Assembly (NCBI GenBank): GCA_016718845.1
Contig: JADKCK010000037.1
Span: forward strand, 1-64,000
Length of the DNA: 64,000 nt
Source of the DNA: Sphingobacteriales bacterium
GTDB taxonomy: Bacteria > Bacteroidota > Bacteroidia > Chitinophagales > UBA2359
Direction: 5' to 3'
In this document: in pieces, positions 1,078-52,019 of the stretch
Layout of the letters: each line of letters starts with the position of its first letter
How positions within the stretch are numbered: the stretch's first letter is position 1
Position numbers and translations under genes: made by a program
The notes under the pieces: generated by a model
Seen by the model: the letters and a program-made list of their open reading frames with translations, nothing else
The model's database searches: none
What the model was told of the DNA's origin: nothing

Positions 1078-3009
1078 TTATTTACCTTTGTCGTTGTTGA
1101 TGGTGCTATCGTTTTCTTTTTTGCCGCTTAAAATCTCAATCATTTTAAGCCCCATTAAGCCAGCCACGCCTCCTTGTTCGGAGTTGCCGCCGCTGATAAG
1201 TACCTCGGGGATAATTTTGATGTTGCCTTTCGAAATTTCTTCGATTACTTTTAGGCGAGTGAAAGAGTCGCTACCCAAAGCAGAAACGGCTAATTCGTAA
1301 GCTTCGGCAGTTGATTTACCGATGTCTAAAATCTTAGACGCTTCGGCTTTACCGGTTACTTCTATTCGTTCAGCTTCGGCTTGTGCGCGTAGTTTCACCG
1401 ATTCGGCATCGGCTTGCGCCCTCATTTTAATAGCCTCCGATTCGGCTTGTGCGCGCACCTTTAAGGCTTGCGATTCGGCGTCTACTTTTAGTTTTATGCT
1501 GCTTGCTTCGCCCTGTGTGCGTTTTACTTCGGCATCGGCGGTGCGGTCGGCAATTTCAACGCTTTGTTGGGCTTTCACAATTTCTTTTTGCATATCGGCA
1601 ATGGCGGTTTCTTTTTCCATGCCTTGTCGTTGTTCTTGTGCTTTTTGTTGCGTTTCGAAGGTAAATTTTTGTTCTTCGGCAATTTTACGGTCGGTAAGGG
1701 TTTTCATCAACGATTCGGGAGGGGTGATGTCGCCAATAAGGGTATCAACGGCGTTTACATTATACTCTTCGAGTACCTTGCGAATATGGTTTTTGGCAGA
1801 TTCTTGTCGTTCTTTACGGGCGCCTAAAAAGGCAATTACATCGCTGTCTTGTGCCGAGTTACGGAAATAATTACCAATAGTAGGTTCAAGTACCTGCGAC
1901 ACAAGGTTGTTCATGTTGCCAAATCGGGCAATAACTTTGGGTGCTTCGTTAGAGGGTACATGAATAATTTGCGACACATCGAGGTTAAACGGGAAACCAT
2001 CTTTTGACCTAACGGTTATGGTAGATAAGTGTTTGTCGAGTTGATGCGACTCGGTGCGTGCCGATGCCCAGTTAAGTACCAAGTTGGTAGTTGGTACTAA
2101 CTCTACGCGCATCGTAAATTTGTTGATGGGGTATTTGCCGGGTCCAAGCGGCTCGTTCCAAACGCCTTTTTCGCCTTTGTTTACAATGTTGCCATGTCTA
2201 AAATCAACGCCCGATGTATCTTGCCCTTCATCGCCAAAGAAAGAAATAACTACACCTACGTTACCAATAGGTATTTCGGTCATGTAGGTTTCTTCTACCT
2301 GCACTGCCCAGGGGTTTAGGTTGTAGCTACCCGCTAAAATTACCTGCGATTGCAAACCCTTAAAACCACCTTTATCTAAAAAAGCGTCCATGTCCTGAAA
2401 GCTATTATGACCCGCAACTACTCTGCCTGCAATTTGCCCTGCTGCGATAGGTTCGCCATCGAGGGTGGTGATAATGCCCACCATGTTGTCGTGAATTTGG
2501 GTCATGCCTACCATTGTAACATCAAACAAAAAGGTGTTGATACGATACGAGCCTGCGGTGATGTAGTTAGATTGTCTACCTTTTTGTCCGCCGTTTTGTA
2601 AAAAAGCTTCGGCATCTTGGTAGTTATCCGATACTACTTTGCGTGCCAAGATGTGTCCAGTTGGTATCTCTCTGCCGTCTTTTGCCATTACTAAACCAAT
2701 CATACCTTGCTCTACAATAGTAAAAGGTTGCATGGTAATGTCGTATTGCCAAAACCACATACCAAAGTAAAGCCCTGGTGCAAGGGTGTTAGCCTGATAA
2801 CCTGCCTCGCCTTTGGTAGCAATAATTTTGCCGTTGGGTAACTCTTTGTTATCGCCAAACAACACAAATTTTTTGGTTACTAAACCCAATCTGTCTTCGG
2901 GTACGATGACCATGCCAAAGAAAACGCGTAAGATAAATTTGTACGAGATAAGCGCTATTAGTATTAGCGGTATCCAGCCATAAGTTAAAAGAATGGAAAT
3001 GGGATCCAT
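1078..3009 (-). CDS. flotillin family protein (SPFH/band-7 domain with AEA-rich C-terminal coiled coil; YqiK-like)
   Basis: The ORF has an N-terminal TM segment, an SPFH-like core and a long E/A/K/Q-rich coiled-coil region (AEEQKFTFETQQKAQEQRQG...AQAESEAIKMRAQADAE). The start was trimmed to MDPISILL (ATG at 3007-3009) within ORF 1078..3057. Confidence 0.75.
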   Translation of the reverse strand: MDPISILLTYGWIPLILIALISYKFILRVFFGMVIVPEDRLGLVTKKFVLFGDNKELPNGKIIATKGEAGYQANTLAPGLYFGMWFWQYDITMQPFTIVEQGMIGLVMAKDGREIPTGHILARKVVSDNYQDAEAFLQNGGQKGRQSNYITAGSYRINTFLFDVTMVGMTQIHDNMVGIITTLDGEPIAAGQIAGRVVAGHNSFQDMDAFLDKGGFKGLQSQVILAGSYNLNPWAVQVEETYMTEIPIGNVGVVISFFGDEGQDTSGVDFRHGNIVNKGEKGVWNEPLGPGKYPINKFTMRVELVPTTNLVLNWASARTESHQLDKHLSTITVRSKDGFPFNLDVSQIIHVPSNEAPKVIARFGNMNNLVSQVLEPTIGNYFRNSAQDSDVIAFLGARKERQESAKNHIRKVLEEYNVNAVDTLIGDITPPESLMKTLTDRKIAEEQKFTFETQQKAQEQRQGMEKETAIADMQKEIVKAQQSVEIADRTADAEVKRTQGEASSIKLKVDAESQALKVRAQAESEAIKMRAQADAESVKLRAQAEAERIEVTGKAEASKILDIGKSTAEAYELAVSALGSDSFTRLKVIEEISKGNIKIIPEVLISGGNSEQGGVAGLMGLKMIEILSGKKENDSTINNDKGK

Positions 3010-3130
3010 GATGAAATGAATTTTTAAAAGTGAATTGTGCTGCACATAAGTATACAACTATTTGGCACAAAATAAAGTTCCAATAAAACGCAATTTTGTA
3101 ATAATTTTGTAAATTACCCAAAAAAGCGTA

Positions 3131-3138
3131 CTTTTGCG
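3131..3138 (+). promoter_or_regulatory. candidate Bacteroidota sigma-A -7 element TAnnTTTG (tacttttg), about 13 bp upstream of the ATPase start
   Basis: The motif tacttttg matches the Bacteroidetes -7 consensus TAnnTTTG and lies in an AT-rich leader. It is a motif only, with no -33 element checked. Confidence 0.3.
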
Positions 3139-3150
3139 GAAAAATAAGCC

Positions 3151-4440
3151 ATGAAAATCCAATCTATTGATTTGCTCAACTATAGGGCGTTTGAGAAATT
3201 ACACATCACTTTTCCAGAAACCAATGTAGCTGTTTTTGTTGGCGAAAACGGAAAGGGCAAATCATCGGTTTTAGATGCTATTGCGGTGTTGCTTAGTCAG
3301 TTAGTGGTGGCGTTCCATGATAGTTTTTCGATAAAAGCTAATAGTAAAGAAATGCCCCAACTATTAGATACAGACATACGCTTACATCAAAACACAACAA
3401 CGCTAAGTATTAATGTAACGGACAATAACAAACAGTATGATTGGGAAATAAGTAAACATAGCTTACTAAATGCCAAATTAAATGATGATGCAAATTTGCC
3501 AACCGATAGGCTTTTTAGGTTAGGCAAAAATTATCCTGTATTAACTTATTACAACACTAACAGAAAATACCTGAAAGATAAAACAACTTTTACAGAATCT
3601 GTATCGATGTATCGTTTCTCACCAGTTTTGCTGTATCGCAATGCTTTAAAATCAAACATTGATGCTTTCGATGATTTTGTGAACTGGTTTCGGTTGAAAG
3701 AGGACAGAGAAAACGAACAAATACGCCGTGAAAAGAATTTTGATTTGCTGAACCCCGAATTAGAAGTAATCCGAAAAACCATTGAAATTTTTTTTCGTAA
3801 CCTACACAATGCCGACTATAGCAAATTGCGCATCGAGCGTTATTATCAGGGACAAGTAGATTTAAGAAACAGCCAATTAATGGTGACAAAAAACGGATTA
3901 GATTTTGAAGTAGCCCAACTATCCGACGGCGAAAAAGTGTTGATGCTAATGGTTTGTGATATTGCAAGGCGTTTGGCTATCGCAAACGAACATGCTAATG
4001 ATACTTCGCTAAACGATGGCATTGTGTTGATTGATGAAATTGAATTGCATTTACACCCGCGCTGGCAACGACAAATTATATCGGCACTGCGCAACACTTT
4101 CCCTAACATTCAGTTTATCATCACCACGCACTCGCCCCAAGTGTTAAGCGAAATTAAACAAAACGAACTATTTATTTTGGCAGATAACCAAGTGTATCAA
4201 CCATCTACCAACCCAATTGGCAGAGATACAAATGCTATTTTGGAAGAAATAATGGGTACAAGTAAACGCCCCCAAGTGATAGAAGACCTATCGGAGCAAT
4301 ATTTTTCGTTTATCAACCAACAATTATGGGCAGATGCCGAAAACACTAAACGCCAATTATTGGCAATATTAGATGCAACCGACCCTATATTTGCTCGAGC
4401 CGAAGCACTTATCAGTCGCAAAAAAATGTTGACAAGATGA
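3151..4440 (+). CDS. ABC/SMC-type AAA family ATPase (AAA_15/AAA_21-like; PtuA-like)
   Basis: Walker A GENGKGKSS is at the N-terminus (MKIQSIDLLNYRAFEKLHITF...). An ABC signature-like LSDGEKVLML is present, followed by Walker B/D-loop IVLIDEIELHLHP and H-loop FIITTHSP. The gene overlaps the downstream HNH gene by 4 bp (ATGA). Confidence 0.7.
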   Translation: MKIQSIDLLNYRAFEKLHITFPETNVAVFVGENGKGKSSVLDAIAVLLSQLVVAFHDSFSIKANSKEMPQLLDTDIRLHQNTTTLSINVTDNNKQYDWEISKHSLLNAKLNDDANLPTDRLFRLGKNYPVLTYYNTNRKYLKDKTTFTESVSMYRFSPVLLYRNALKSNIDAFDDFVNWFRLKEDRENEQIRREKNFDLLNPELEVIRKTIEIFFRNLHNADYSKLRIERYYQGQVDLRNSQLMVTKNGLDFEVAQLSDGEKVLMLMVCDIARRLAIANEHANDTSLNDGIVLIDEIELHLHPRWQRQIISALRNTFPNIQFIITTHSPQVLSEIKQNELFILADNQVYQPSTNPIGRDTNAILEEIMGTSKRPQVIEDLSEQYFSFINQQLWADAENTKRQLLAILDATDPIFARAEALISRKKMLTR

Positions 4441-5169
4441 AGTATATCGTAAAAAACTACCCAGAGCCAGCCACTTTTACGGCATGGAAACAACGCAAAA
4501 AATTAACCAAAAACGATTTACTACGAAAAACGCGCTTACAAAAAGAGCAAGGCGAAATTTGGAAAACATTCACAAAATCGAAAGAAAAAAACAACCTTAA
4601 AGAATCGTTGCTCAACGAACAGGGTTTTTTGTGTTGCTACTGCCAACAACAACTACACCTAAACGAAAACACCCAAATAGAACATTTAGCGCCTCGTGGT
4701 GTAGATGCCCTAAAAATGCTTGACTACGATAACCTACTTGCAGCCTGCAATGGGGGGCAGCCCGAACGCGAACAACGCAAAGGGTAATGCTATTGAGCGT
4801 CAACCCAAATACTGTGGACATGCCAAAGCCAATTACATTTTAGCAATTACTCCTTTAGACAAGGATTGTGAAACCCATTTTTACTACGAAATTCAAGACG
4901 ACACGGGTAGTATACTTGACGTTAAAGTGTGGATAAGAAGCAGTAGCACAGAAGGTAAAGATGCCATTGACAAACTAAACCTAAATACCCCAAAATTGCT
5001 TGCTTTACGAGGACAAGCTATTGCCGCATGGATTTATGATGAACAACAAATCTATATCAGCCCGCAAGAAGCCCAGCAAATATTAACACAAATCAACCAC
5101 ACTAATCACAAACCATTTGTGCCTTTTTGCGCCGTACTCCAATCAATATTGCAATGGCTTAGTCAATAA
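4437..5169 (+). CDS. HNH endonuclease (TIGR02646-like, PtuB-like), reading frame broken at a G6 run (4752-4757)
   Basis: Frame 0 gives CCYCQQQLHLNENTQIEHLAPRG...NLLAACNGGQ, then stops. Frame +1 continues AMGGSPNANNAKGNAIE, completing the HNH C-x2-C...H...C-N-x2-KGN motif. The combined length is about 244 aa. Confidence 0.55.
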
Positions 5170-5184
5170 CATTCGCATCTTTTA

Positions 5185-5259
5185 CCCACCCCTGCCCCTC
5201 CAAAGAGGGGAATTTATTTACCATTTACTTTTACCCACCCCTGCCCCTCCCAAGAGGGA
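5185..5259 (+). repeat. two copies of a GC-rich hairpin mini-element (CCCCTGCCCCTCC-AAAG-AGGGG) in a direct repeat of about 50 bp
   Basis: cccacccctgcccctccaaagaggggaatttatttacca occurs twice (5185-5210 and 5234-5258). Members of the same family occur at 19406, 37866-38010, 42353 and 49143. Confidence 0.5.
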
Positions 5260-5293
5260 ATTTATTTACAATTTACCATTTACAATTAAAAAA

Positions 5294-17968: not shown

Positions 17969-19681
17969 ATGAAAACTTTTTTATACCTCTGTCTTTTGTT
18001 TTGCTCCATGTTAGGTTTTGCACAGCCTAAATATTTCGAAAAAAATATGGGCTGGTCAAATGTACACGAAGGCAGAAGAATTATCCAAAAATCGATTGAT
18101 GATTACATCATCATGGGAAATGTTTTAAGCCCATCTTGGAAAGCATACACTATGGTAATTGATAATAATGGCACAACCCAACCGCAAATTGAGTATAGTG
18201 TATCAGAAAATGGTAATAGTGGTGGGTATGATATAATAAATACAGAATACGGCTATGCTTTTTGCGGTTTTTTAGAAAACGAATTTAGTTCATCTCAATC
18301 TTATTTATTACAAACCAATCACGAAGGAGGACTAATAAACACATTAATAATTGGCAGTAATGTCTATGCAAATGTTAGTTTTTCTCTCTGTCGTACTACC
18401 GATAAAGGGTATCTTTTGGCGGTTTTATAAACAACTCAAATGGCTTACACACACCTTATTTAATAAAATTAGATAGCCTTGGTGTGCAACAATGGGATAA
18501 AACTTGGGATAATTTCACTGATGCATTTTCAGCTTTTGTTACGGCACAACCTGCTAAAGATGGTAGTGGTTATTACCTTGTTGGTGCAATCAACAATTCT
18601 TATTCCACAGGTGATGTATTGTTGTTAAAAATTGCAGATGATGGTACCGAAATATGGCAAGCAGTTTACGGAGTAAATACAGGAGCGCGAAGTACCTAAA
18701 ACATTATTGCAAACAGATGATGGCGGTTTTGCTATATCTTACATGAAAACAACACTTCCTGAAAGTTACAGCGGGTTATTAAAACTAAATGCTGATAGAA
18801 CGATAGCATGGAATTCTGATAGTTCTTTTTATGCAAGTAGTCCTGCCGAAAAGATTATTCATATCGCTAATGAGGGGTATCTCTTTGCTGGAGAATATGA
18901 AACTGACCCTGTGTTACTCAATAACTTAGATGCTGAAATAGTACGTTTATCAGCTAATGGAGATATATTATGGAAACGTCATTATGGAGGAATGGATAAT
19001 GATTACATCTACGATTTTATCCCTACATCAGACGGGGGCTACTTTTTTGTTGGACGCACAGAAAGCCCCGATTTGGGCGTGCCTACGGGCGGTGCCAACG
19101 TCTACCTCCTCAAAACCAACTGCATGGGGCTTTTAACCGAGCCACAAGCCAACTTCACCGCACAAATAGACACCGCTTTGCTCACCGCCACCTTCCAAAA
19201 CCTATCCCAATACACCTACCCCGACAGCATAGACGGTGGGCATTACCTCTGGGACTTTGGCGATGGTACAACTTCTACCCAAATAAACCCTACACACACC
19301 TACGCACAAGGGGGTAATTACAGCGTTACCCTTACGGCGGTGGTTTGTAGTGATACGAGTGTGTTTGTGCAGCAAGTTAGTACTTGGGCGGTGGGCATAG
19401 AAGCCTCCCCCCTGCCCCCTCCAAAGGAGGAGGAGATACGGGTGTTGCCTAACCCTGCTAATGAGCAAATAAGTATTTCTCCGCCTTCAGGGGGCTGGGG
19501 GGTACAAACCCACACTTTTGTGCTATACGATGTGTTGGGTAAAGAGGTAGCAAGTCAAGTATTGTTAGCAAATGGCACAAGTGTTAAAACCCAACATTTA
19601 CCTTCGGGCATCTATCTATACCAAATCATCAACCCACAAAACCAAACTTTGCAGCATGGAAAACTTAGTATTTTGCACTAA
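17969..19681 (+). CDS. T9SS-secreted repeat protein with a PKD domain; the reading frame is broken twice (~18415 and ~18690)
   Basis: A signal peptide MKTFLYLCLLFCSMLGFA is present. Repeated DGGY..VG......D..L.K....G...W..YGG modules and a PKD motif WDFGDGTTS...HTY are present. The T9SS CTD is ...LPSGIYLYQIINPQNQTLQHGKLSILH. Three consecutive ORFs in different frames read as one protein. Confidence 0.5.
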
Positions 19682-25350: not shown

Positions 25351-26092
25351 TTATTCGTTCCAAATTGCCCAAGCTGCCTCGGCTTGCAGATGCAGCATAT
25401 CCAAGCCATTTTTTGTTACTGCTCCGTATTTGGCAGCTTGTTGCATAAACCGTGTTTCGGTAGGGTTGTACACCAAATCGTAGCATAAATGATTAGGGCT
25501 AAAAAAATGATAGGGTAGGGCAGGGGCTGCATCGGTGTTTGGATACATGCCCAAAGGCGTAGTATTAACCACAATAGTATGTTGTGCCATTATATGGGCA
25601 GTTATTGCAGGGTAGCTTAACCCATTGTTATTATTATGGTTGTTTGCTTGCCTCGACACTATAGTATACGGGTATACCCAACTTTTGCAATACCCAACAA
25701 ACTGCCTTTGCTGCACCACCATTGCCCAACACCAATGCTGCTTTATGGTGTGCTTGCAATAAAGGCATCAACGATTGTTCAAAACCAATAACATCGGTAT
25801 TATAGCCAATTAAGCGTCCTTGTTTAATTTTAATGCAATTAACCGCCCCAATTTGTTGTACAGCAGGGCTTTGCTCGTTAATATACGCCAACACCGATTG
25901 CTTATAGGGTATAGTTACATTTAATCCACACAAATCGGGGTTTTGTTGTAATAAATCGGGTAGCAAATCAATATGTTCAATAGCAAACAAATCGTAACGA
26001 CAATTTGACAGTTGCTCGCGCTCAAATTTTTGACTAAAGTATTGCCGCGAAAACGAATGAGATAAAGGATAACCAATTAATCCGTAGTGCAT
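25351..26092 (-). CDS. aroE: shikimate 5-dehydrogenase, reading frame broken at about 25650-25720
   Basis: The N-terminal part is MHYGLIGYPLSHSFSRQYF...NVTIPYK...NTDVIGF...LVLGNGGAAKAV. The C-terminal part, in another frame, is ...VNTTPLGMYPN....YDLVYNPTETRFMQQA. The two ORFs 25634..26188 and 25351..25722 overlap. Confidence 0.7.
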
Positions 26093-34191: not shown

Positions 34192-35993
34192 ATGAAAAAT
34201 ATCCGCAATTTCTGTATTATCGCACACATCGACCACGGAAAATCAACCCTCGCCGACCGTTTGCTCGAACACACACAAACTATTACCGAACGCAAAATGC
34301 AAGACCAATTGCTCGACAATATGGACTTGGAACGCGAACGTGGCATTACCATTAAAAGTCATGCCATACAAATGGACTACCCACACTCCGACGGGCAACG
34401 ATACACCCTTAACCTTATCGACACACCCGGTCACGTCGATTTTTCTTACGAGGTATCCCGCTCTATTGCCGCCTGCGAAGGCGCACTTTTGCTCGTAGAT
34501 GCCACACAAGGCATACAAGCTCAAACCATATCTAACCTTTATCTTGCCATCGACCACGACCTCGAAATTATCCCCATTATCAACAAAATTGATATGGAGG
34601 GAGCCATGATTGAGGAAGTAGCCGACCAAATCATTGAGCTAATTGGCTGTAGCCGAGAAGATATTTTAGAAGCCAGCGGACGTACAGGACAAGGCGTACA
34701 GGGTATCTTCGATGCCATTATCAACCGTATCCACACCCCATAGGCGATGCCGACGCACCCCTACAAGCACTTATCTTTGACTCGGTATTTAATACCTTCA
34801 GAGGTATCATTGCCTACGTGCGCGTAATGAACGGGCGTTTGGCTAAAAAAGATAAAGTACACTTTATAGCCACCAACAAAGATTATTTTGCCGATGAAGT
34901 AGGTATCTTACGCCTCGATATGGAACCCTGCGACAGCCTCGAAGCAGGTAATGTAGGCTACCTAATTACAGGTATCAAACAATCGAAAGACATAAAAGTG
35001 GGCGATACCCTAACCCTAACCAATAATCAATGTACCGAAATGATTAAAGGTTTTGAAGATGTAAAACCAATGGTATTTGCAGGTATCTACCCCATGGACA
35101 ACGACGACTTTGAACCCCTCCGCGACTCGCTCGAAAAATTACAACTCAACGACGCCTCCCTAGTCTTCGAACCCGAAACATCAATAGCTCTTGGCTTTGG
35201 CTTCCGCTGCGGTTTCTTGGGCATGTTACACCTCGAAATAGTACAAGAACGCCTCGAACGAGAGTTTAACATGACCGTTATCACTACCGTTCCAAACGTA
35301 TCGTACTTTGCACAGCTAAAAGGTAAAAGCGCCGAGCGTATCAGCCTACAAAACCCCGCCGATATGCCCGATGTAACCAACATAGAATACATCGAAGAAC
35401 CAATGATTAAAGCACAAATCATCACCAAACCCGAATACATTGGCTCTATCATGTCGTTGTGTTTAGAAAAACGAGGCGTACTACAAAACCAACATTACCT
35501 ATCGCCCAGCCGCGTAGAAATTACCTTCGAGATGCCACTAGCCGAAATAGTATTTGACTTTTACGACAAACTAAAATCCATCTCACGCGGTTATGCCTCG
35601 TTTGATTACCACATGATAGGCTATCAACAATCGGATTTAGTAAAAATGGACATCTTGCTAAACAGCGAAAAAGTAGATGCCTTGTCTGCCCTTGTTCACC
35701 GCTCAAAAGCCAATAGCCTTGGACGTCGCTTGTGCGAAAAACTAAAAGAACTACTGCCACGTCAACAGTTTGTTATTGCCATACAAGCCGCCGTTGGTGC
35801 CAAAATCATAGCCCGCGAAACCATCAGCGCCTTGCGTAAAGATGTTACCGCCAAATGTTATGGTGGTGATATTAGCCGCAAACGCAAACTACTCGAAAAA
35901 CAAAAAGCAGGTAAAAAGAAAATGCGCCAAATTGGTAACGTAGAAGTACCTCAACAAGCATTTATGGCAGTACTAAAACTAAACGACAACTAA
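34192..35993 (+). CDS. lepA: translation elongation factor 4 (LepA), reading frame broken at about 34735-34745
   Basis: [20 protein letters not shown] and DTPGHVDF are in the first ORF. The second ORF continues in another frame ([28 protein letters not shown]...) to the LepA C-terminal domain. The shift occurs in cacacccca. Confidence 0.8.
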
Positions 35994-37139: not shown

Positions 37140-38554
37140 TGTCCTGCGTTTTTGTTAATTATTTGATGATGATTGAAAACAAGTACCCCATTTACATACG
37201 TTTGTTGCACTACCCCAAACAAGCGTTGCCCAATATATGGGCTGATGGGATAGCGATGCAAAACATCTTGTGGGGTAGGCACAAAACTTGCTTCGGGCTT
37301 CCAAATGGTAAAATCGGCATCATAACCTACCTTTATGCTGCCTTTTTTTGTGTCTACACCTAAAAATTGTGCAGGCTTTTGGGTGATAAGTGGTATAAAC
37401 TGGGCTAAACTTACGTACTCTTTTAGGCTTGTGTAGCTGGCGGGTAGCAAAAACTGCAAACCGGCTATACCGCCCCATGCCTTTTGTAGGTTGCCGCTTT
37501 CTATCTCTTTGATAGCAGGCGGCGCCGGCGAATGGTCGGACGACACAAAATCCATTAAACCACTACCAAAGGCTTGTTTTATTAAGTTGTTGTTGTGTGC
37601 CTCGCGGATAGGTGGAGCACATTTATATAGCGTATTGCCATCGGGTATGGTTTCGGCACTAAACAGTAGGTAATGCGGGCAGGTTTCTACGGTAAGCGGC
37701 AAACCCTCTTGTTTAGCTTGGGCAATATAGGGCAATGCCTCTGCCGAAGATAAATGTACAATGTGCGTTTTGCAAGCATGCTTCCTACATAGGTCTATCA
37801 TCAACAAAACAGCATCGTTCTCCCATTGTTTAGGGCGGCTTGCCAAATATTGGGCATAACTCAAATCCCCCCCTTGCCCCCCCTTTGGAAAAGGGGGGGA
37901 GGCATTCGCCTCATCATCAGAGGCATTTGCCTCTGTTGATGAATGCTCCCCCCCCAAAGGGGGGGCATTTTCTTGACAATACTCCCCCTTTGGGGGGGCA
38001 AGGGGGGGATTTTCGCAGTGTGCCAACAGTGGTACATTATACGGAGCCAAGATAGCCATAGCCGCGTCCAACTCCTTACGCCCTACATTCGGAAACTCAT
38101 CAATACCCGAATGTACTAAAAACGCCTTGATACCCAATACCCCTGCATCTACCAATGCCGTTAAATGTTGTAGGTTATCGGGCACAAGTCCGCCATAAAA
38201 CCCACAATTAACGTGCATTTTACCGTTCGATGCGGCTAACTTTTGCTCAAAAGCTGCCACCGTAGTAGTTACGGGGCTTGAGTTAAGTGGCATATCTATT
38301 ACCGTAGTGATGCCGCCTGCTGCTGCTGCTTGGGTGGCGGTATCAAAACCTTCCCAGTCGGTGCGTCCGGGTTCGTTGATGTGTGCATGTACATCAATAC
38401 AACCGGGCATAAGCACATCATCACCCACATCTACTACATTAGGGTTGTTTAATTTGCCTTGGTAGATGTGCGTAATGATACCATTATCAAAAGAAATAGT
38501 TGCAGGCTGAAGCTGATTGTCGAGCCAACAACGAGTGCTATATAAGTGGGGCAT
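37121..38554 (-). CDS. allantoinase-like cyclic amidohydrolase (dihydroorotase/hydantoinase superfamily), with an in-frame ~45-aa GC-element insertion
   Basis: The metal-binding motif is CIDVHAHINEPGRTDWEGF. The context (adjacent allantoicase and xanthine dehydrogenase) supports allantoinase. The insertion encodes ...EYCQENAPPLGGEHSSTEANASDDEANASPPFPKGGQGGDLSYAQ.... Confidence 0.7.
   Translation of the reverse strand: MPHLYSTRCWLDNQLQPATISFDNGIITHIYQGKLNNPNVVDVGDDVLMPGCIDVHAHINEPGRTDWEGFDTATQAAAAGGITTVIDMPLNSSPVTTTVAAFEQKLAASNGKMHVNCGFYGGLVPDNLQHLTALVDAGVLGIKAFLVHSGIDEFPNVGRKELDAAMAILAPYNVPLLAHCENPPLAPPKGEYCQENAPPLGGEHSSTEANASDDEANASPPFPKGGQGGDLSYAQYLASRPKQWENDAVLLMIDLCRKHACKTHIVHLSSAEALPYIAQAKQEGLPLTVETCPHYLLFSAETIPDGNTLYKCAPPIREAHNNNLIKQAFGSGLMDFVSSDHSPAPPAIKEIESGNLQKAWGGIAGLQFLLPASYTSLKEYVSLAQFIPLITQKPAQFLGVDTKKGSIKVGYDADFTIWKPEASFVPTPQDVLHRYPISPYIGQRLFGVVQQTYVNGVLVFNHHQIINKNAGQWLLRK
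37866..38010. repeat. cluster of 3-4 GC-rich hairpin mini-elements (C5-7 TTG C5-7 ...G5-7) embedded in-frame in the amidohydrolase gene
   Basis: cccccccttgccccccctttggaaaaggggggg, ctccccccccaaagggggggc and ctccccctttgggggggcaaggggggg are present. Local GC far exceeds the flanking sequence. The same family is seen at 5185, 19406, 42353 and 49143. Confidence 0.5.
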
Positions 38555-38830: not shown

Positions 38831-41094
38831 CACAAGCGGATTATACAACGCCATTAACACCTTTTCGGGGGTTATGGGGGCATTATAAGGTATGTTTGCT
38901 TGTGGATTAAACACCTTAATAGCATTGCGCACCGCAAAATACGCACCAATACCATACATTAAAGGCGGTTCGCCAACAGCTTTCGATTTGAAGATAGCCA
39001 AGTCGTGACCCTCGGTTTGCAAAAAGTGTAGGTTTATTTGCTCGGGTACAGCATATACGTCGGGTATTTTGTAGGTAGATAAGGCATTAGATAACAAACG
39101 CCCATCGGCATTGTATACCACATCTTCGAGCGTCATCCAGCCAATACCTTGTACAATACCCCCTTCGCACTGCCCAATATCTATTTGCCTATTCATGGTA
39201 CTACCAAAATCGTGTACCACATTTACGGCATCGAAGGTGTAAGTACCGCGCAGGCAATCGAGGGTGACAATGGTTAATGCCGTGCCATATACATGGTAAG
39301 CAAAAGGATGCCCTTTTTCTATCGTTTTATCGAAATGAATAAGGGGCGTTGCATAATGCCCTTTGGCACTTAGGTTTAGTCGTTTCATATAGGCTTGCCT
39401 AACCAAATCTGCCCAAGTAAGTGTTGTTTGTCTATCATCTACCCAAACGGTATTGTTTTTAAGTGCCAATTTAGGTATGTCGGTGGGGGTAAGTTGCAGC
39501 ACATCTGCCGCAAAAGCCAACAAACGTTGTGTTATTTGCAAACAAGCATCTTCGAGGGCTTTGCCGTTTAGGTCGGCGGTGGCACTTGCAGCCGAGGGCG
39601 AGGTGTTGGCTACGCGGGTAGTATTAGTTGTTTCAAGTTTTACCAAACGCGTATCTATCCCAAAATGATGCGCTGCCACTTGTACCATCTTGGTATTTAC
39701 CCCCTGACCCATCTCAACAGCACCCGTACTAATGCCTACGCTACCATCGGTGTATACATGTACAAGGGCGCGGGCTTGGTTCATTAGCGTATTGGTAAAC
39801 GATATGCCAAAGCATATAGGCATCAACGAAAAAGCTTTTTTGTAGTAGCGGTTTTGTTGATTAAAGGTGTTTATTTGTGTTTGTAGCTCATCAAATGGGT
39901 ACTGTTTGTTTAGCTCGTCCCAGCAAGCGGTGGCTTGGCATTGCTCAACTACTTGCCCATACGAAAACTCGTAGCCATTGCCCATCATGTTTTTGCGTTG
40001 TAGGGTGTAGGTGGCTATGCCCAAGCTTTTTGCAGCGTGGTCAAGGGCAGACTCTATTACAAACATACCTTGCGGACCTCCAAAACCCCTAAATGCCGTA
40101 TTAGGTGGCAAGTTGGTTTTGCACGAATGAGCCGTTACCTGTACATTGGGTATGTGGTAGGTGTTGGTGGCATGAAACAAAGTGCGCTCTAATATAGCCG
40201 GCGATAAATCGGCGGCAGCCCCTCCATTTTGGTAAAAGGTGGCTTGATAGGCTAGTATGCGGTGGTTGGCATCAAAGCCAATCTTGTAATCGCTGCTATA
40301 AGGGTTGCGTTTGCCAGTCATGCGCATATCCTCCATGCGGTGCGGCACACATTTGGCAGGCTTTTTAAGCACAAACGCCACCAATGCTGCCATAGCACCC
40401 CAGCCCGATGCTTGGTCTTCTTTGCCACCAAAGCCGCCGCCAAGTCGTGCCACATCTACCTCTACTTGGTTCATGCCCACACCCAAAACCCGCGCTACGG
40501 TACGTTGCACGGCTGTTGGACCCTGTGTTGATGAATGTATGCGCACACTGTTGTGTTCGGTGGGATAGGCATACGCCCCTTGTGTTTCGAGGTACAAATG
40601 CTCTTGCCCACCCGACTCGGTTTGCCCTTCAAAGATGTAAGTACACTGTGCAAATGCCTCGTCAACGTTGCCCATCACAAACTTACGCGACGGACTTAAC
40701 AACTTGCCTTGTGCAAATGCCTCGCGTGGGTCGGTGATAATGGGCAGCGGCTCCATCTGTATTTGTATCAGTTGATAGGCTTCGTGGGCAGCGTCGTCGT
40801 TTTCGGCAACAATTAGCAGTATCGGCTGACCCCTAAAATGCACTTCATGGTCGGCTAACAATGGCTCGTCCGGAAAGATACCGCCTATCTGGTTCTCGCC
40901 GGTATGTCTTTATAGCTTAGTATACGCACAATACCTGCTACTTGTTCGGCTTGGCTATAATCTAGGTGCGTGATGTGTCCGTGTGCCACCGCCGAATCAA
41001 ATACTTTAACGGTTAGTGTGCCTTGCATCACGGGTATATCATCAAGATAAATCGACCTGCCTGTTACGTGAGCGGCTGCGTCTATGTTGGTCAT
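38828..41094 (-). CDS. xanthine dehydrogenase / aldehyde oxidase molybdopterin-binding subunit, reading frame broken at about 40862-40885
   Basis: The N-terminal a/b-hammerhead fragment is MTNIDAAAHVTGRSIYLDDIP (40885..41094). The main ORF (38828..40861) has Mo-cofactor-binding blocks (GGGFGGKE, ...). The two ORFs are collinear with a 24-bp gap. Confidence 0.65.
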
Positions 41095-43757: not shown

Positions 43758-46700
43758 CTATTTAACAATAGATACTGTACCCGATGCTAAACGGTCGGTA
43801 CCCGATAATACAGTATAGTAGTACAAGCCTGTTGGTATGGTACGTGTATCCCACAACAACTCGCCGCTTAGGTTAGTAAATGATAGTTGTGTAATTTCTT
43901 TGCCTGTTGGGTCGGTAATTACCAATAAAATGGCTTCGGTTTTTGAAGGCACGCTGTACGCAAACGTAACATAATCACGGGCAGGGTTGGGGTAAACAGT
44001 AACTGTAGTAAGCAGTTTATTTATGTCTGCTTGTGGGTTAGTACTTATTTGTTTGCCGCTACCCGCAGCGGGTGTTAAATTGGGCAGGGTGGGCAAGCCA
44101 CAATTGCTGCCGTTTACAAAGCACAATATGTTTTGGGCTTGTATGGTAGCCGCATCGGTTGGTGTGCCATTAGCAAGGGTTTGCAGTTGGCTTTTTTCGG
44201 TGTTGGTAAGCTGTAGCCAATTTCGCCCGCTCTCTATCACTTGTCGTTTTAGGGCGTATAGCTGCATATAGGCAGTATGCGGGTTGGGGTTGCGCAATAC
44301 ATACAAATAGCGGTTAGGCATGTCGGACAATAGGGTGCTGCCTGCTGTGCCATTGTTGTGGGTAAGGTAGCTTTCGGCAAGGACATAGTCGGCTGCCGAT
44401 GTGTGTTGGCGTTGTAGCCATTGGTGTAGGTCGGTTAGGTTGGGTATGCTGTCGTTTAGTATGTTAGACACCATCAACTGCCCATTGTGCAGCATTAGGC
44501 TGCGGTAGTTGAGCAGGTTGCGGTACAGCGTTTTTTTCAACGAGCCGGATTCTTGGGTGCACAACAACAAATCGAGCAGGTTTTGGGGTAGTGGGTTGGG
44601 TATGTCGTGGGCTAAAAAATCTAAAAAGGCTTTGTCTTTGCAAGCATCGGCGTTTAGCAATAGTATTTCTATGAGCATGGCATCGGGTAGCGTGCCTGTA
44701 AGGGGCAGCGCGGCGCAATACCTCTTGCGACAGGTTGGGCGATTTGGCTACTAATTGGTTGCGCAGTGTCCAGGCATCGTTGCTCCATACCAAATCTATG
44801 TTATCGAGCAGGGCATTGGTATTGCCATTGTCTATTAGGGCATTGTATAGGTATAGGGTGTTGCCATAGTCGGTTTCGGCTTGCGTAAAACTGTTGGCTA
44901 ATACCTGGCGGGCGGGCTGTGCCAAACCTGATATTTGTTGGCTTTGGTCGGGGCAGGTGTTTGGGTTACTTATATCTCCTTGTACCTGCGTAAACCACTC
45001 TGTAGTAAAATCCAATGCCTGTGTTTGTAGTAGGGCATTATCGTAATATTGCGTAACGGGCAAGCCACTGTGTAGGTAGTAATCGCTTTCGGAGGTGCCG
45101 TTGCGCGAGTACTTATTTTGGGCAGATTGTGTGCCGCCCAAAATGCCATTCTGAAACAAACGTATGCCATTGCCGCCTGCTATGTACATGTCGTACAATC
45201 CTTGGGTGTGGGTGTTGCACTCGTAGTGCAAGCCCATAGCATCAGGGTTTAATGGATCATTTCTATTATCACCCAATGCTAAATTGGCGTAATCTAATTT
45301 AGTAAAGGTGTTGTTATAAATTAGGTTGTTGTTGGGTCCGGTGTTGTTTACCCAAATGCCAATTCTGTTTTGTTGGCTACATTGTTGCCTATAAAGGTGT
45401 TTTTTTGTATCTTGTAGCCAGTACCTGTATATACTATTAAGCCAAAGCCTAGGTTGCCGCGTGCGGGGTTGTGTAGGGTAAAGGTGTTGTTTACAATTTT
45501 GGCAGTGTTTACGTTTTGGGTAATTATGCCTACTGTATTGCCCGTAAAGTTTGACCTTTGTACGCTAATGGTGTGGTTGCCAGCGGCGCGGGTAGCTTTA
45601 ATGCCACACGATAGTTTTTGGAAGGTACAAGCATCGGCAGCGCTGTTACTGCCTACTTTGTATCCGGCATCAATAGAGTATATGCCATAGAAGTTTTGTT
45701 GTGCATCGGGTAGGTTGGTGTTGTTGTTGATGAAGTTACATTTTTTAAACTGTACGCCGTCTACGTCCCACATAGTAACGCGGTGTATGGGGTCGGTGTT
45801 GCGGTAGTTGTTGTCTATGGTAAAGGTGCAGTTGTAAAAGTTGCTTAGGTTTGGGTGCGAGAATCCGCTGTAGTAGTTGTTGTATTGCATAAACTCTAGG
45901 TCGCGGTGGTTGTTGGTAAAAGTTGCGCCGTTGGCAATAATAATACCGCCTGCTGTGTTGGCATCGCTGCCGTTCCAGGTGCTTATGGCATCGCGGGCGT
46001 GTTCTATTTTGGCACCAGCATTAATAGTTACTTTGCCCTGTAAGCAATCGGGATAAGAACCTGTTTGCCCTAATGTTTTGTTACCCAGTACTCTAATCCC
46101 GCCCCACATATCGCCGCAGGCATTGGTTATTTTGCCGTTTATTATTAGTTCGGCACTTGGCTCTACTATAATAAACGCATTGGCTGCCATATTAAGTGTG
46201 CCATTAATGGTTAAGCTTTTATGTGCTTGTACCCTAATGGTGTTGGCTGCATTTATTACCCTGCCTTGTTGGTAAATGGTGTTTTCGGTAATCAGGTAAT
46301 CTTGTGCAAAGTCGGCATTGTCTAAGTTCGATTGCCAAATACCTCGCCCAAATGTGCCAATGTGTAGTAAGCGTTTGCAATAATCTATCTCCAAATCAGT
46401 AACAATACAAACCGGTAAATTGTGGTTAAAACAGCCCCATGCATTTGTAGCAGGGTTGTAGCGGTATACGCCAACATCGGTGCCTGCATATAATATGCCA
46501 TTAGAGCCATTTACGTAAGCTAAGGCATTGACCGGAAAAGGCGTTAAACCATTGTTAAGCGACATGTCGGTAAAAGTTAGTCCACCATTGATTGATTCTT
46601 CTACTCGTCCCTGAGTTTGTCCGGTGTCATCTGTCGGAAACCCGCCTTTGGCTATACAAATATGGTTGGGGTTACGCGGGTCTATGGCTATGGCATTCAC

Positions 46701-50676: not shown

Positions 50677-52019
50677 ATGAAAAAGATGTTCGCCTTTGTG
50701 CTTTATGTTTTTAGTTTTTGTGTAGCTAATGCACTTACAGCAGCTACCTATTTTCCCCCATGCCAAGCATCGTTTGGCACTATCATCAACCCCAATCAGC
50801 AAGTATTGTGTGCAGGCAGCAACAATACCGAGTTAATTTTGGTAGATGATGCAGCGTTTCCGTACACTACCCTATATTTATTGGTTGATGATGATGCAGG
50901 TATTGTTAGGGCGATGCAGCCAAACAGTATCTTTGCATTGGCAGATGCCGCAGCAGGCTCGTACCACATCTACCCCATAAACCTACTTGCCGAGCAATTG
51001 CCAAGCCTGTACAACTTAGTACAAACTTCATCTACCCCAATAAATACCCTCGATACTATGTTGCAAAACAATAGTGTGTGCTTTGCATTAGATACTGTTG
51101 GTGTAGGTATAGAGGTGTTAGAGCCGCTTGGGTTGTTTATAAACGAAGAGTGTGAGTTTGACTTAGATTACATAGAATTAGTAGTAACTTTCTTTGGAGG
51201 TTATCCACAGTATAATCCAGACTCTGTTTATGCGCTAAATGGATCTTTGAATGGAGAGTTTGTTTATGGAGATACAGTTGTACAATGGTTTGCAGATAAC
51301 GTTATTTATGACTTAATACTTACAGCAGGTGGTTGCGAGGAGGTGTTGATGAAAGAAGATATAGTTACATGTAGTTTGTGCAATAACTATCCAGGTCAGT
51401 TAAACGTAGATACTAGTATTATTTGCAATGGTGTAGTTAGTGTTGATGTAATTGATGAAGATGTAGAAGGGGCTATTTTAGTTTATGTGTTACACAATAC
51501 GCCTCCTTTATTTACTACATCGGATACCTTATTTAATGTATTGGCTATCAACAGCAGTGGTATATTTGACCTAAACAATGTACCTAACCTAATAGAGGGT
51601 GCAACCTATTATCTATCGGCAGTTATAGGGGACGACGGTATTTGGAAAATGGAGTGATTGATGATTATACTGATGGTTGTACAGTGGTGTCGGAGAGTAA
51701 GCAGTTTGTTTACCACACCAATTGCGACCCAATAGGTATCAACACACCAACACATTTGGGTGCATTACAGTTACAATTAAGTCCTGTGCCTGCCCATAAT
51801 GTATTGCAGATAACTTATGTAGCTACACAAAAAAGCACCATAAACGCAGTAGTTTATGATGCTTTGGGTAGCGTACTTGATGTGTTTTGTGTGGCTGCCA
51901 ACGAGGGTAAAGGTACATATCCCTTGGCTATTGATAGCTATGCTTCGGGGATTTATTTTGTGCGGCTAAACGATAGTCAATACAGTGCAGTAGCTAAGTT
52001 TGTGAGGAGGAAGGAGTGA
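50677..52019 (+). CDS. T9SS-secreted hypothetical protein, reading frame broken at about 51645-51657
   Basis: A signal peptide MKKMFAFVLYVFSFCVANA is present. The second ORF (51642..52019) ends with a T9SS CTD (...SGIYFVRLNDSQYSAVAKFV). The two ORFs overlap by 16 bp. Confidence 0.5.

Follow-up and report, generated by a model that had tools for sequence, protein, structure and literature searches.

Does the two-gene module at positions 3151 to 5169 of this 64,000-nucleotide stretch (contig JADKCK010000037.1; hereafter the window, meaning the whole stretch of DNA analysed) encode an anti-phage defence system, and has its nuclease gene been genuinely inactivated? The initial annotation described an ATPase gene followed by an HNH nuclease gene, likened the pair to the Septu (PtuA/PtuB) system, and placed an interruption of the nuclease gene at a run of six guanines (G6) that could be either a sequencing error or a real loss of function. 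The Septu reading was supported by the analysis reported here. The module is predicted to be a stand-alone (type I) Septu system, ptuA-ptuB, hosted by a wastewater bacterium that belongs to Chitinophagales/Sphingobacteriales and has not been cultured. The split of ptuB, which lies elsewhere than first proposed, probably reflects an error in the consensus of this metagenome assembly. Three tests that had been set in advance, namely whether the ATPase belongs rather to a housekeeping family, whether an HNH motif is recovered once the frame is corrected, and whether the two genes are conserved as neighbours, all favoured Septu. The module consists of the following parts.

3151-4440 (+): ptuA, encoding an intact ABC/SMC-type ATPase of 429 amino acids (aa), NCBI MBK9460736.1
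4437-4787 (+): 5' fragment of ptuB as encoded, 116 aa, MBK9460737.1, annotated as "TIGR02646 family protein", with residues CCYC (66-69), H83, N99 and C104
4782-5169 (+): 3' part of ptuB, in the +1 frame, with the C126-GHAK-N132 motif and a helical C-terminal domain
4750-5169 (+): the NCBI call for the 3' part of ptuB, 139 aa, hypothetical protein MBK9460738.1

The four motifs quoted earlier for the ATPase were all found in the 429-aa open reading frame, and each falls at invariant columns of the family: Walker A GENGKGKSS (aa 31-39), the signature LSDGEK (257-262), Walker B LIDEIELHLHP (293-303), and the H-loop TTHSP (325-329). In a 20-sequence family alignment the protein keeps 45 of the 45 invariant columns, including G31, N33, G34, G36, K37, Q256-L-S-x-G260 (with S258), D295, E296, and H327. 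The PADLOC PtuA profile PDLC00271 was matched with an E value of 3e-111, residues 1-427 of 429 covering positions 1-417 of the 421 in the profile, and almost all of the best 25 PADLOC matches listed for this ATPase were PtuA models. Pfam returned AAA_15, AAA_21, and SMC_N. The closest solved relative by sequence was the Escherichia coli Septu PtuA chain 8EE4_A (E 2e-39). According to a cluster look-up, the exact PtuA protein of the window is known only from this NCBI contig, part of a metagenome-assembled genome (MAG).

An ATGA at 4437-4440, in which the TGA stop codon of ptuA overlaps the ATG start codon of ptuB, joins the two genes as first described. The 5' open reading frame of ptuB contains the reported CCYCQ...IEHLAPRG sequence and ends at an early stop, so that in this assembly ptuB is present as pieces of 116 aa and 139 aa rather than as a single open reading frame. 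The two HNH open reading frames cover complementary halves of the PADLOC PtuB profile PDLC00332, which has 212 positions: the 5' fragment matches positions 1-96 (E 4e-24) and the 3' part positions 92-207 (E 1.7e-18). When rejoined, the protein matches positions 1-207 with an E value of 1e-43 and scores 76 bits against the NCBIfam model TIGR02646, above its cut-off of 52.15. The HNH protein was thus recovered at full length after frame correction. Alignment with intact homologues identified C66, C67, Y68, C69, H83, N99, C104, and C126 as conserved and G127, A129, and N132 as nearly invariant, and the second half of the nuclease motif reads C104 ... C126-G-H-A-K-x-N132. When the joined protein was used as a query for homologues, intact proteins were returned that have 243-244 aa and share 95-96% identity with it. 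For one intact, 95%-identical relative (P0001) an AlphaFold2 model was made, with a predicted local distance difference test score (pLDDT) of 89. Its top Foldseek match was the E. coli Septu PtuB chain 8EEA_G (probability 1.00), followed by retron I-A PtuB chains. By sequence the closest solved relative of PtuB was E. coli Septu 8EE7 (E 1e-4). Judged by sequence, the records MBK9460737.1 and MBK9460738.1 each represent one half of a single predicted PtuB.

The position of the frame change was examined in 13 near-identical metagenome or MAG contigs (L001-L007 and L092-L097, 98.4-99.5% identical), all with an open ptuB. The G6 run at 4752-4757 (+) reads GGGGGG in the window and in 13 of the 13 contigs with an intact gene, so the run is not the lesion and the earlier placement of the frame change there is refuted. 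The reading frame is in fact broken by a single added A at 4779-4781 (+) (CGCAAGGG to CGCAAAGGG), 25 bases downstream of the run. Seven of the contigs (L007 and L092-L097) carry the same ptuB allele at this site; there the window reads CGCAAAGGGTAAT and these relatives read CGCAAGGGTAAT, the extra A being absent in 7/7. It is the sole length difference from the same-allele relatives. With the added base the frame becomes ...AAA GGG TAA, with a premature TAA at 4785-4787, three bases on. Deletion of one A gives an open protein of 243 aa that reads ...AACNGGQPEREQRKGNAIERQPKYCGHAKAN... across the site. A frame junction at the G6 run was also tried and was rejected, since it puts 10 wrong residues (SPNANNA...) into the protein when this is aligned with intact homologues. 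The motif CN..AKGN in the initial annotation was an artefact of switching frames 25 nucleotides (nt) too early, and the KGN of ptuB falls in a non-conserved loop. The 116-aa product as encoded would keep the beta-beta-alpha-Me core but be without C126, H128, and N132 and without the helical C-terminal domain, through which PtuB contacts PtuA in retron-PtuAB structures (PMC12819146).

Two lines of comparison bear on how this extra base arose, the first being the condition of the rest of the contig. The 116-aa and 139-aa fragments were found on this one contig only, and the intact 243-aa protein was found on 62 contigs in NCBI, ENA, and Logan. An indel comparison covered about 33 kb of the window that could be aligned to contigs of 98-99.7% identity. 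Private frameshifting indels were found in lepA (-1 at 34730; 600 aa and intact in 4/4 relatives), in aroE (+1 at 25670; 246 aa and intact in 2/2 relatives), in a xanthine-dehydrogenase-like gene (-1 at 40898; 755 aa and intact in relatives), and in WbqC, where four were present, at 263, 523, 538, and 578, in a gene that is intact in relatives. A private in-frame -3 lies in a C run at 37983, and a protein of 558 aa in relatives is present as fragments at 17969-19681. Because core genes are broken, at roughly one frameshift per 3-4 kb, and are intact in relatives, these indels point to consensus errors rather than to biology. Frameshifts in this MAG are not to be read as biology without reads, given that the same kind of break is seen in core genes such as lepA and aroE.

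The second line of comparison is the variation of the module within the species. The segments concerned are listed here.

3322-4083 (+): hypervariable middle segment of ptuA, aa 58-311, from comparison with L100 (4694-5983), L101, and L098
3691-3730 (+): private ptuA patch with 8 substitutions, namely M182L, E186R, and Q194E plus synonymous changes, from a table of single-nucleotide polymorphisms in 9 near-identical contigs
4773-4799 (+): hypervariable ptuB patch of 27-29 nt with two population haplotypes, encoding a loop at about aa 113-121

The two haplotypes of the ptuB patch encode EQYNRDNTIDY (haplotype A) and E-RKGNAIER (haplotype B). They are a 3-nt indel apart, with ptuB otherwise identical, and around 4779-4781 their DNA reads GAACAATACAACAGGGAT and GAAGAACGCAAGGGT. 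Twelve of the 14 variable ptuB columns lie within alignment columns 337-365. The extra A sits exactly on the 3-nt length polymorphism that separates the haplotypes. The ptuB of the window is a unique A/B mosaic at the patch: its flanks are those of haplotype A (0 differences from L001 outside the patch) and its patch is that of haplotype B, with the first variable base and the extra base both matching haplotype A. A consensus built from mixed strains would have this appearance, and the assembly error may be chimeric, joining two ptuB alleles that occur together and differ in length by 3 nt at this place. Whole-collection DNA scans of Joint Genome Institute (JGI) metagenome contigs gave zero matches, both for the allele-B patch pattern accepting AA or AAA and for the invariant flank with the G6 run, so no independent copy of the exact strain was obtained from that collection. 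A consensus error is considered likely, on the evidence of the broken core genes, the single-contig allele, and the position of the extra A, and the organism most likely carries an intact PtuB of 243 aa.

Several points weigh against this account. The insertion occurred in a run of just two or three A's and not in a long homopolymer, and platform errors are less typical there. Short-patch recombination is real in the population, and the private ptuA patch at 3691-3730 is codon-consistent; imprecise natural recombination at the ptuB patch could have given rise to a genuine frameshift. Loss or degradation of defence genes is common, and real inactivation is often seen in those whose effectors are toxic. 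The assignment to consensus error is an inference from contig comparison. With respect to function, substrates differ among the known Septu and retron PtuAB systems, and the activity of the member in the window is a prediction by analogy.

In the best-placed alternative, ptuB would be a genuine pseudogene of this strain, with the toxic effector disarmed and ptuA left intact. Truncation after the beta-beta-alpha-Me core (through C104) would remove C126, H128, and N132 together with the PtuA-binding C-terminal domain. The lesion does lie inside a recombination-prone hypervariable patch, where an imprecise natural exchange is conceivable, and the haplotype combination Q + RKGNAIER is absent from every other contig, which makes the strain distinct. 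However, the private frameshifts in lepA and aroE, in genes that are intact in near-identical relatives, make the indels of this assembly untrustworthy, and the frameshift allele is present on 1 contig as against at least 62 contigs with an intact gene. Further decay, in the form of extra stops or indels, is absent from ptuA and from both halves of ptuB. Of the two explanations that the initial annotation had offered, sequencing error is thus the better supported, and real inactivation of ptuB is regarded as unlikely.

It is very unlikely that the pair belongs to another ABC-ATPase system, whether a retron type I-A pair, a system of the OLD, Gabija, or PARIS type, or a housekeeping protein such as RecF, RecN, or SbcC. 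The retron form of this proposal, sometimes called type II Septu, draws on weaker PADLOC matches to retron I-A (ATPase_I-A, E 1.4e-79, over residues 189-427 only; HNH_I-A, E 3.7e-25) and on NCBIfam retron Ec78 PtuA and PtuB models that match below cut-off. It was rejected: neither a reverse transcriptase (RT) gene, among the neighbours of ptuAB in the window or in relatives, nor a retron RNA, in an Rfam scan of the 64-kb window that gave zero matches, was found. In addition, the PtuA of the window has 429 aa and is without the extensions of about 100 aa of retron PtuA (542-552 aa), and the Ec78 equivalog cut-offs were missed (NF041760, 258 against 500 bits; NF041761, 89 against 150 bits). The N-terminal P-loop also matches RecF and Rad50, but the RecF, Rad50, and SbcC matches are confined to the first ~47 residues of the ATPase, and all three families were rejected on scores far below their cut-offs: RecF with 50.8 bits against 172, over residues 3-49 only, SbcC with 18 bits against 478, and Rad50 with at most 49 bits against 700-1000. 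OLD, Gabija GajA, and PARIS AriAB were rejected as well, as Pfam shows ATPase families only, without TOPRIM, and the partner is an HNH protein.

Conservation of the two genes as neighbours was assessed in a PtuA homologue scan of GTDB genomes. Eighty loci were kept, with 29-43% identity, from Cyanobacteria, Bacteroidota, Proteobacteria, Firmicutes, and Archaea, a set that includes neither the source genome nor a reference of its species. A match to the PtuB profile was found immediately downstream on the same strand in 74 of the 80. The profile and structure matches of PtuA and PtuB, the failed housekeeping and retron tests, and the co-conservation of the pair together argue for a stand-alone type I Septu system.

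The weakest proposal, a prfB-like +1 recoding at AAA GGG TAA T (GGG to GGT) that would give a low, regulated supply of full-length nuclease, is hardly credible: a +1 slip at GGG-TAA restores the exact frame and the RKGNAIER residues, but this arithmetic is its sole support and is what any single-base insertion beside its out-of-frame stop would give, an upstream stimulatory element was not identified, and programmed frameshifting was rejected because the feature is not conserved, with every other contig of the species, and every more distant homologue, encoding PtuB in one frame.

Apart from the origin of the extra A, the variation within the two genes has a pattern of its own. In comparison with L100 and L101, the flotillin gene, cysK, and ptuB have 99.0-99.7% nucleotide identity and ptuA has 91.7%. 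The ptuA genes differ at 50 codons non-synonymously and at 39 synonymously. The non-synonymous differences fall within aa 58-284 in 49 of the 50 cases, the last being at aa 311, and after aa 330 there are zero codon differences of either kind. The middle segment of ptuA resembles the product of a swap, bounded by recombination, in which a divergent sensor or insertion domain was exchanged. The ptuB patch encodes a surface loop of low model confidence (pLDDT 59-62 for residues 111-130 in the P0001 model) between the zinc-ligand cysteines C104 and C126. Both segments appear to be recombination-bounded, as would be expected for defence proteins under phage pressure, and this mosaic variation, in the middle domain of PtuA and the loop of PtuB, offers a modest lead on the surfaces of Septu that undergo phage-driven diversification; it does not point to a new system. 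A bolder joint reading holds that the frameshift is real, imprecise short-patch recombination having disarmed the nuclease, and that PtuA aa 58-311 and the PtuB loop at aa 108-120, sharply bounded segments that recombine between strains with an identity of 99% or more elsewhere, mark phage-sensing or inhibitor-evading surfaces. This combination is decidedly improbable. If it were true, the natural wastewater population would be a ready-made map of Septu specificity determinants.

The module is flanked on one side by a Band_7/flotillin gene on the minus strand (1078-3057) and on the other by cysK, a PALP cysteine-synthase gene, which bears out the neighbours named at the outset. The gene order flotillin, ptuA-ptuB, cysK is a fixed chromosomal site in all relatives examined, and this holds even for strains with a PtuA that is just 83-88% identical in amino acids. 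The locus tags of the window proteins belong to the IPN94 series. Candidate signals on the two sides of the operon are listed below.

3058-3150 (+): intergenic DNA lying upstream of ptuA and containing two candidate -7 promoter boxes (TAnnTTTG)
3102-3109 (TAATTTTG) and 3130-3137 (TACTTTTG): the candidate -7 boxes, as read from the sequence
5180-5276 (+): two tandem repeats of ~49 nt, directly after the ptuB stop at 5169

TAnnTTTG is presumably a Bacteroidota-type -7 box, an assumption that we take from the Bacteroides promoter literature. A sigma-70 scan called no promoter in 3058-3150. A terminator scan placed one terminator-like hairpin in each ~49-nt repeat, at 5195-5210 and at 5245-5258, with AATTTATTT after it. 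The hairpin is GC-rich (CCCCTCC-AAAG-AGGGG). Within the window the repeat is unique to 5180-5276, with 0 matches expected by chance, and its copy number and sequence differ among strains. The tandem hairpin repeats are probably the end of the ptuAB operon.

Strain-variable insertions were observed on either side of this site. Between WbqC and the flotillin gene (about 925 to 1077 in the window), a two-gene insertion encoding proteins of 282 aa and 149 aa is present in L001 (973-2283), L093 (6494-7804), L094, L096, and L100. The window, L092, and L097 lack it, and L098 and L099 have a 58-aa plus 149-aa version. The 282-aa and 149-aa proteins gave zero Pfam or PADLOC matches. One strain has a 3-kb insertion (L092:17054-20011) just upstream of the ribulose-phosphate 3-epimerase gene, 5 kb from Septu, and the counterpart in the window, at about 9900, is without it. 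This insertion encodes a 349-aa protein whose match to type IIG restriction-methyltransferases is confined to their C-terminal specificity part (TaqI_C; PADLOC E 1.6e-46) and a 633-aa SMC_N/AAA_13 ATPase with weak matches to MADS3, LmuB, and PDC-S06. It is possibly another defence module. Elsewhere in the window, open reading frames that overlap on the same strand form two pairs, at 43758-45276 (-) and 50677-52019 (+); these end in Por_Secre_tail domains (type IX secretion system sorting), and both pairs are probably single genes split by frameshifts.

A mechanism may be proposed by analogy with characterized members. PtuA, as an ABC-type ATPase, would oligomerise and hold the HNH nuclease PtuB through the helical C-terminal domain of the latter. 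ATP-bound PtuA would keep the nuclease silent, and phage infection would release or activate it. Phage resistance, complex formation, and nuclease properties are known only from E. coli and Bacillus systems, as described in the accounts of PMC12640716, PMC12819146, and PMC13096335. In the summaries of Li et al. 2024 given by the first two of these, stand-alone PtuAB of E. coli assembles as a 6:2 PtuA:PtuB complex in which the nuclease is inhibited by ATP binding, and activated PtuAB nicks DNA. The Septu system EcB88 cleaves tRNA-Tyr in its variable loop during T6 infection, depends for this on its Walker A/B motifs and on HNH residues H75 and N91, and acts as an abortive-infection-like system (PMC13096335). 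The proteins of the window retain the equivalents of the required residues, namely K37, D295/E296, H83, and N99.

Septu is already well described, and standard tools (PADLOC, DefenseFinder, TIGR02646) detect it, so that the value of the present analysis lies mainly in correct annotation. Among the known systems, the retron type I-A systems (Ec78/Eco7 and Ec83/Eco4) have homologous PtuA and PtuB effectors, which were among the PDB and fold matches. They need an RT, a non-coding RNA, and multicopy single-stranded DNA, and their PtuA has N- and C-terminal extensions (542-552 aa), whereas the module of the window is without these. Septu EcB88, from an E. coli clinical strain (PMC13096335), shares the two-gene architecture, and its essential residues (Walker A/B; the H and N of PtuB) are equivalent to K37, D295/E296, H83, and N99 of the window. 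It differs in that EcB88 cleaves the tRNA-Tyr variable loop, and the substrate of the window's system may be tRNA or DNA. The E. coli Septu PtuAB (PDB 8EE4, 8EE7, and 8EEA; Li et al. 2024; PADLOC type I PtuA1/PtuB1) is a distant relation, with ~16% identity in the PtuB fold alignment and a PtuB sequence match of E 1e-4; the host here is an uncultured Bacteroidota, and ptuB is split in this assembly. Both systems nevertheless consist of two overlapping co-oriented genes without an RT, with an ABC ATPase PtuA of ~430-465 aa (465 aa in the stand-alone PtuA) that has its Walker A/B, signature, and H-loop motifs intact and a PtuB of ~240 aa with a TIGR02646-type HNH domain and a helical C-terminal domain. 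By both sequence and fold, the two proteins of the window match E. coli Septu best.

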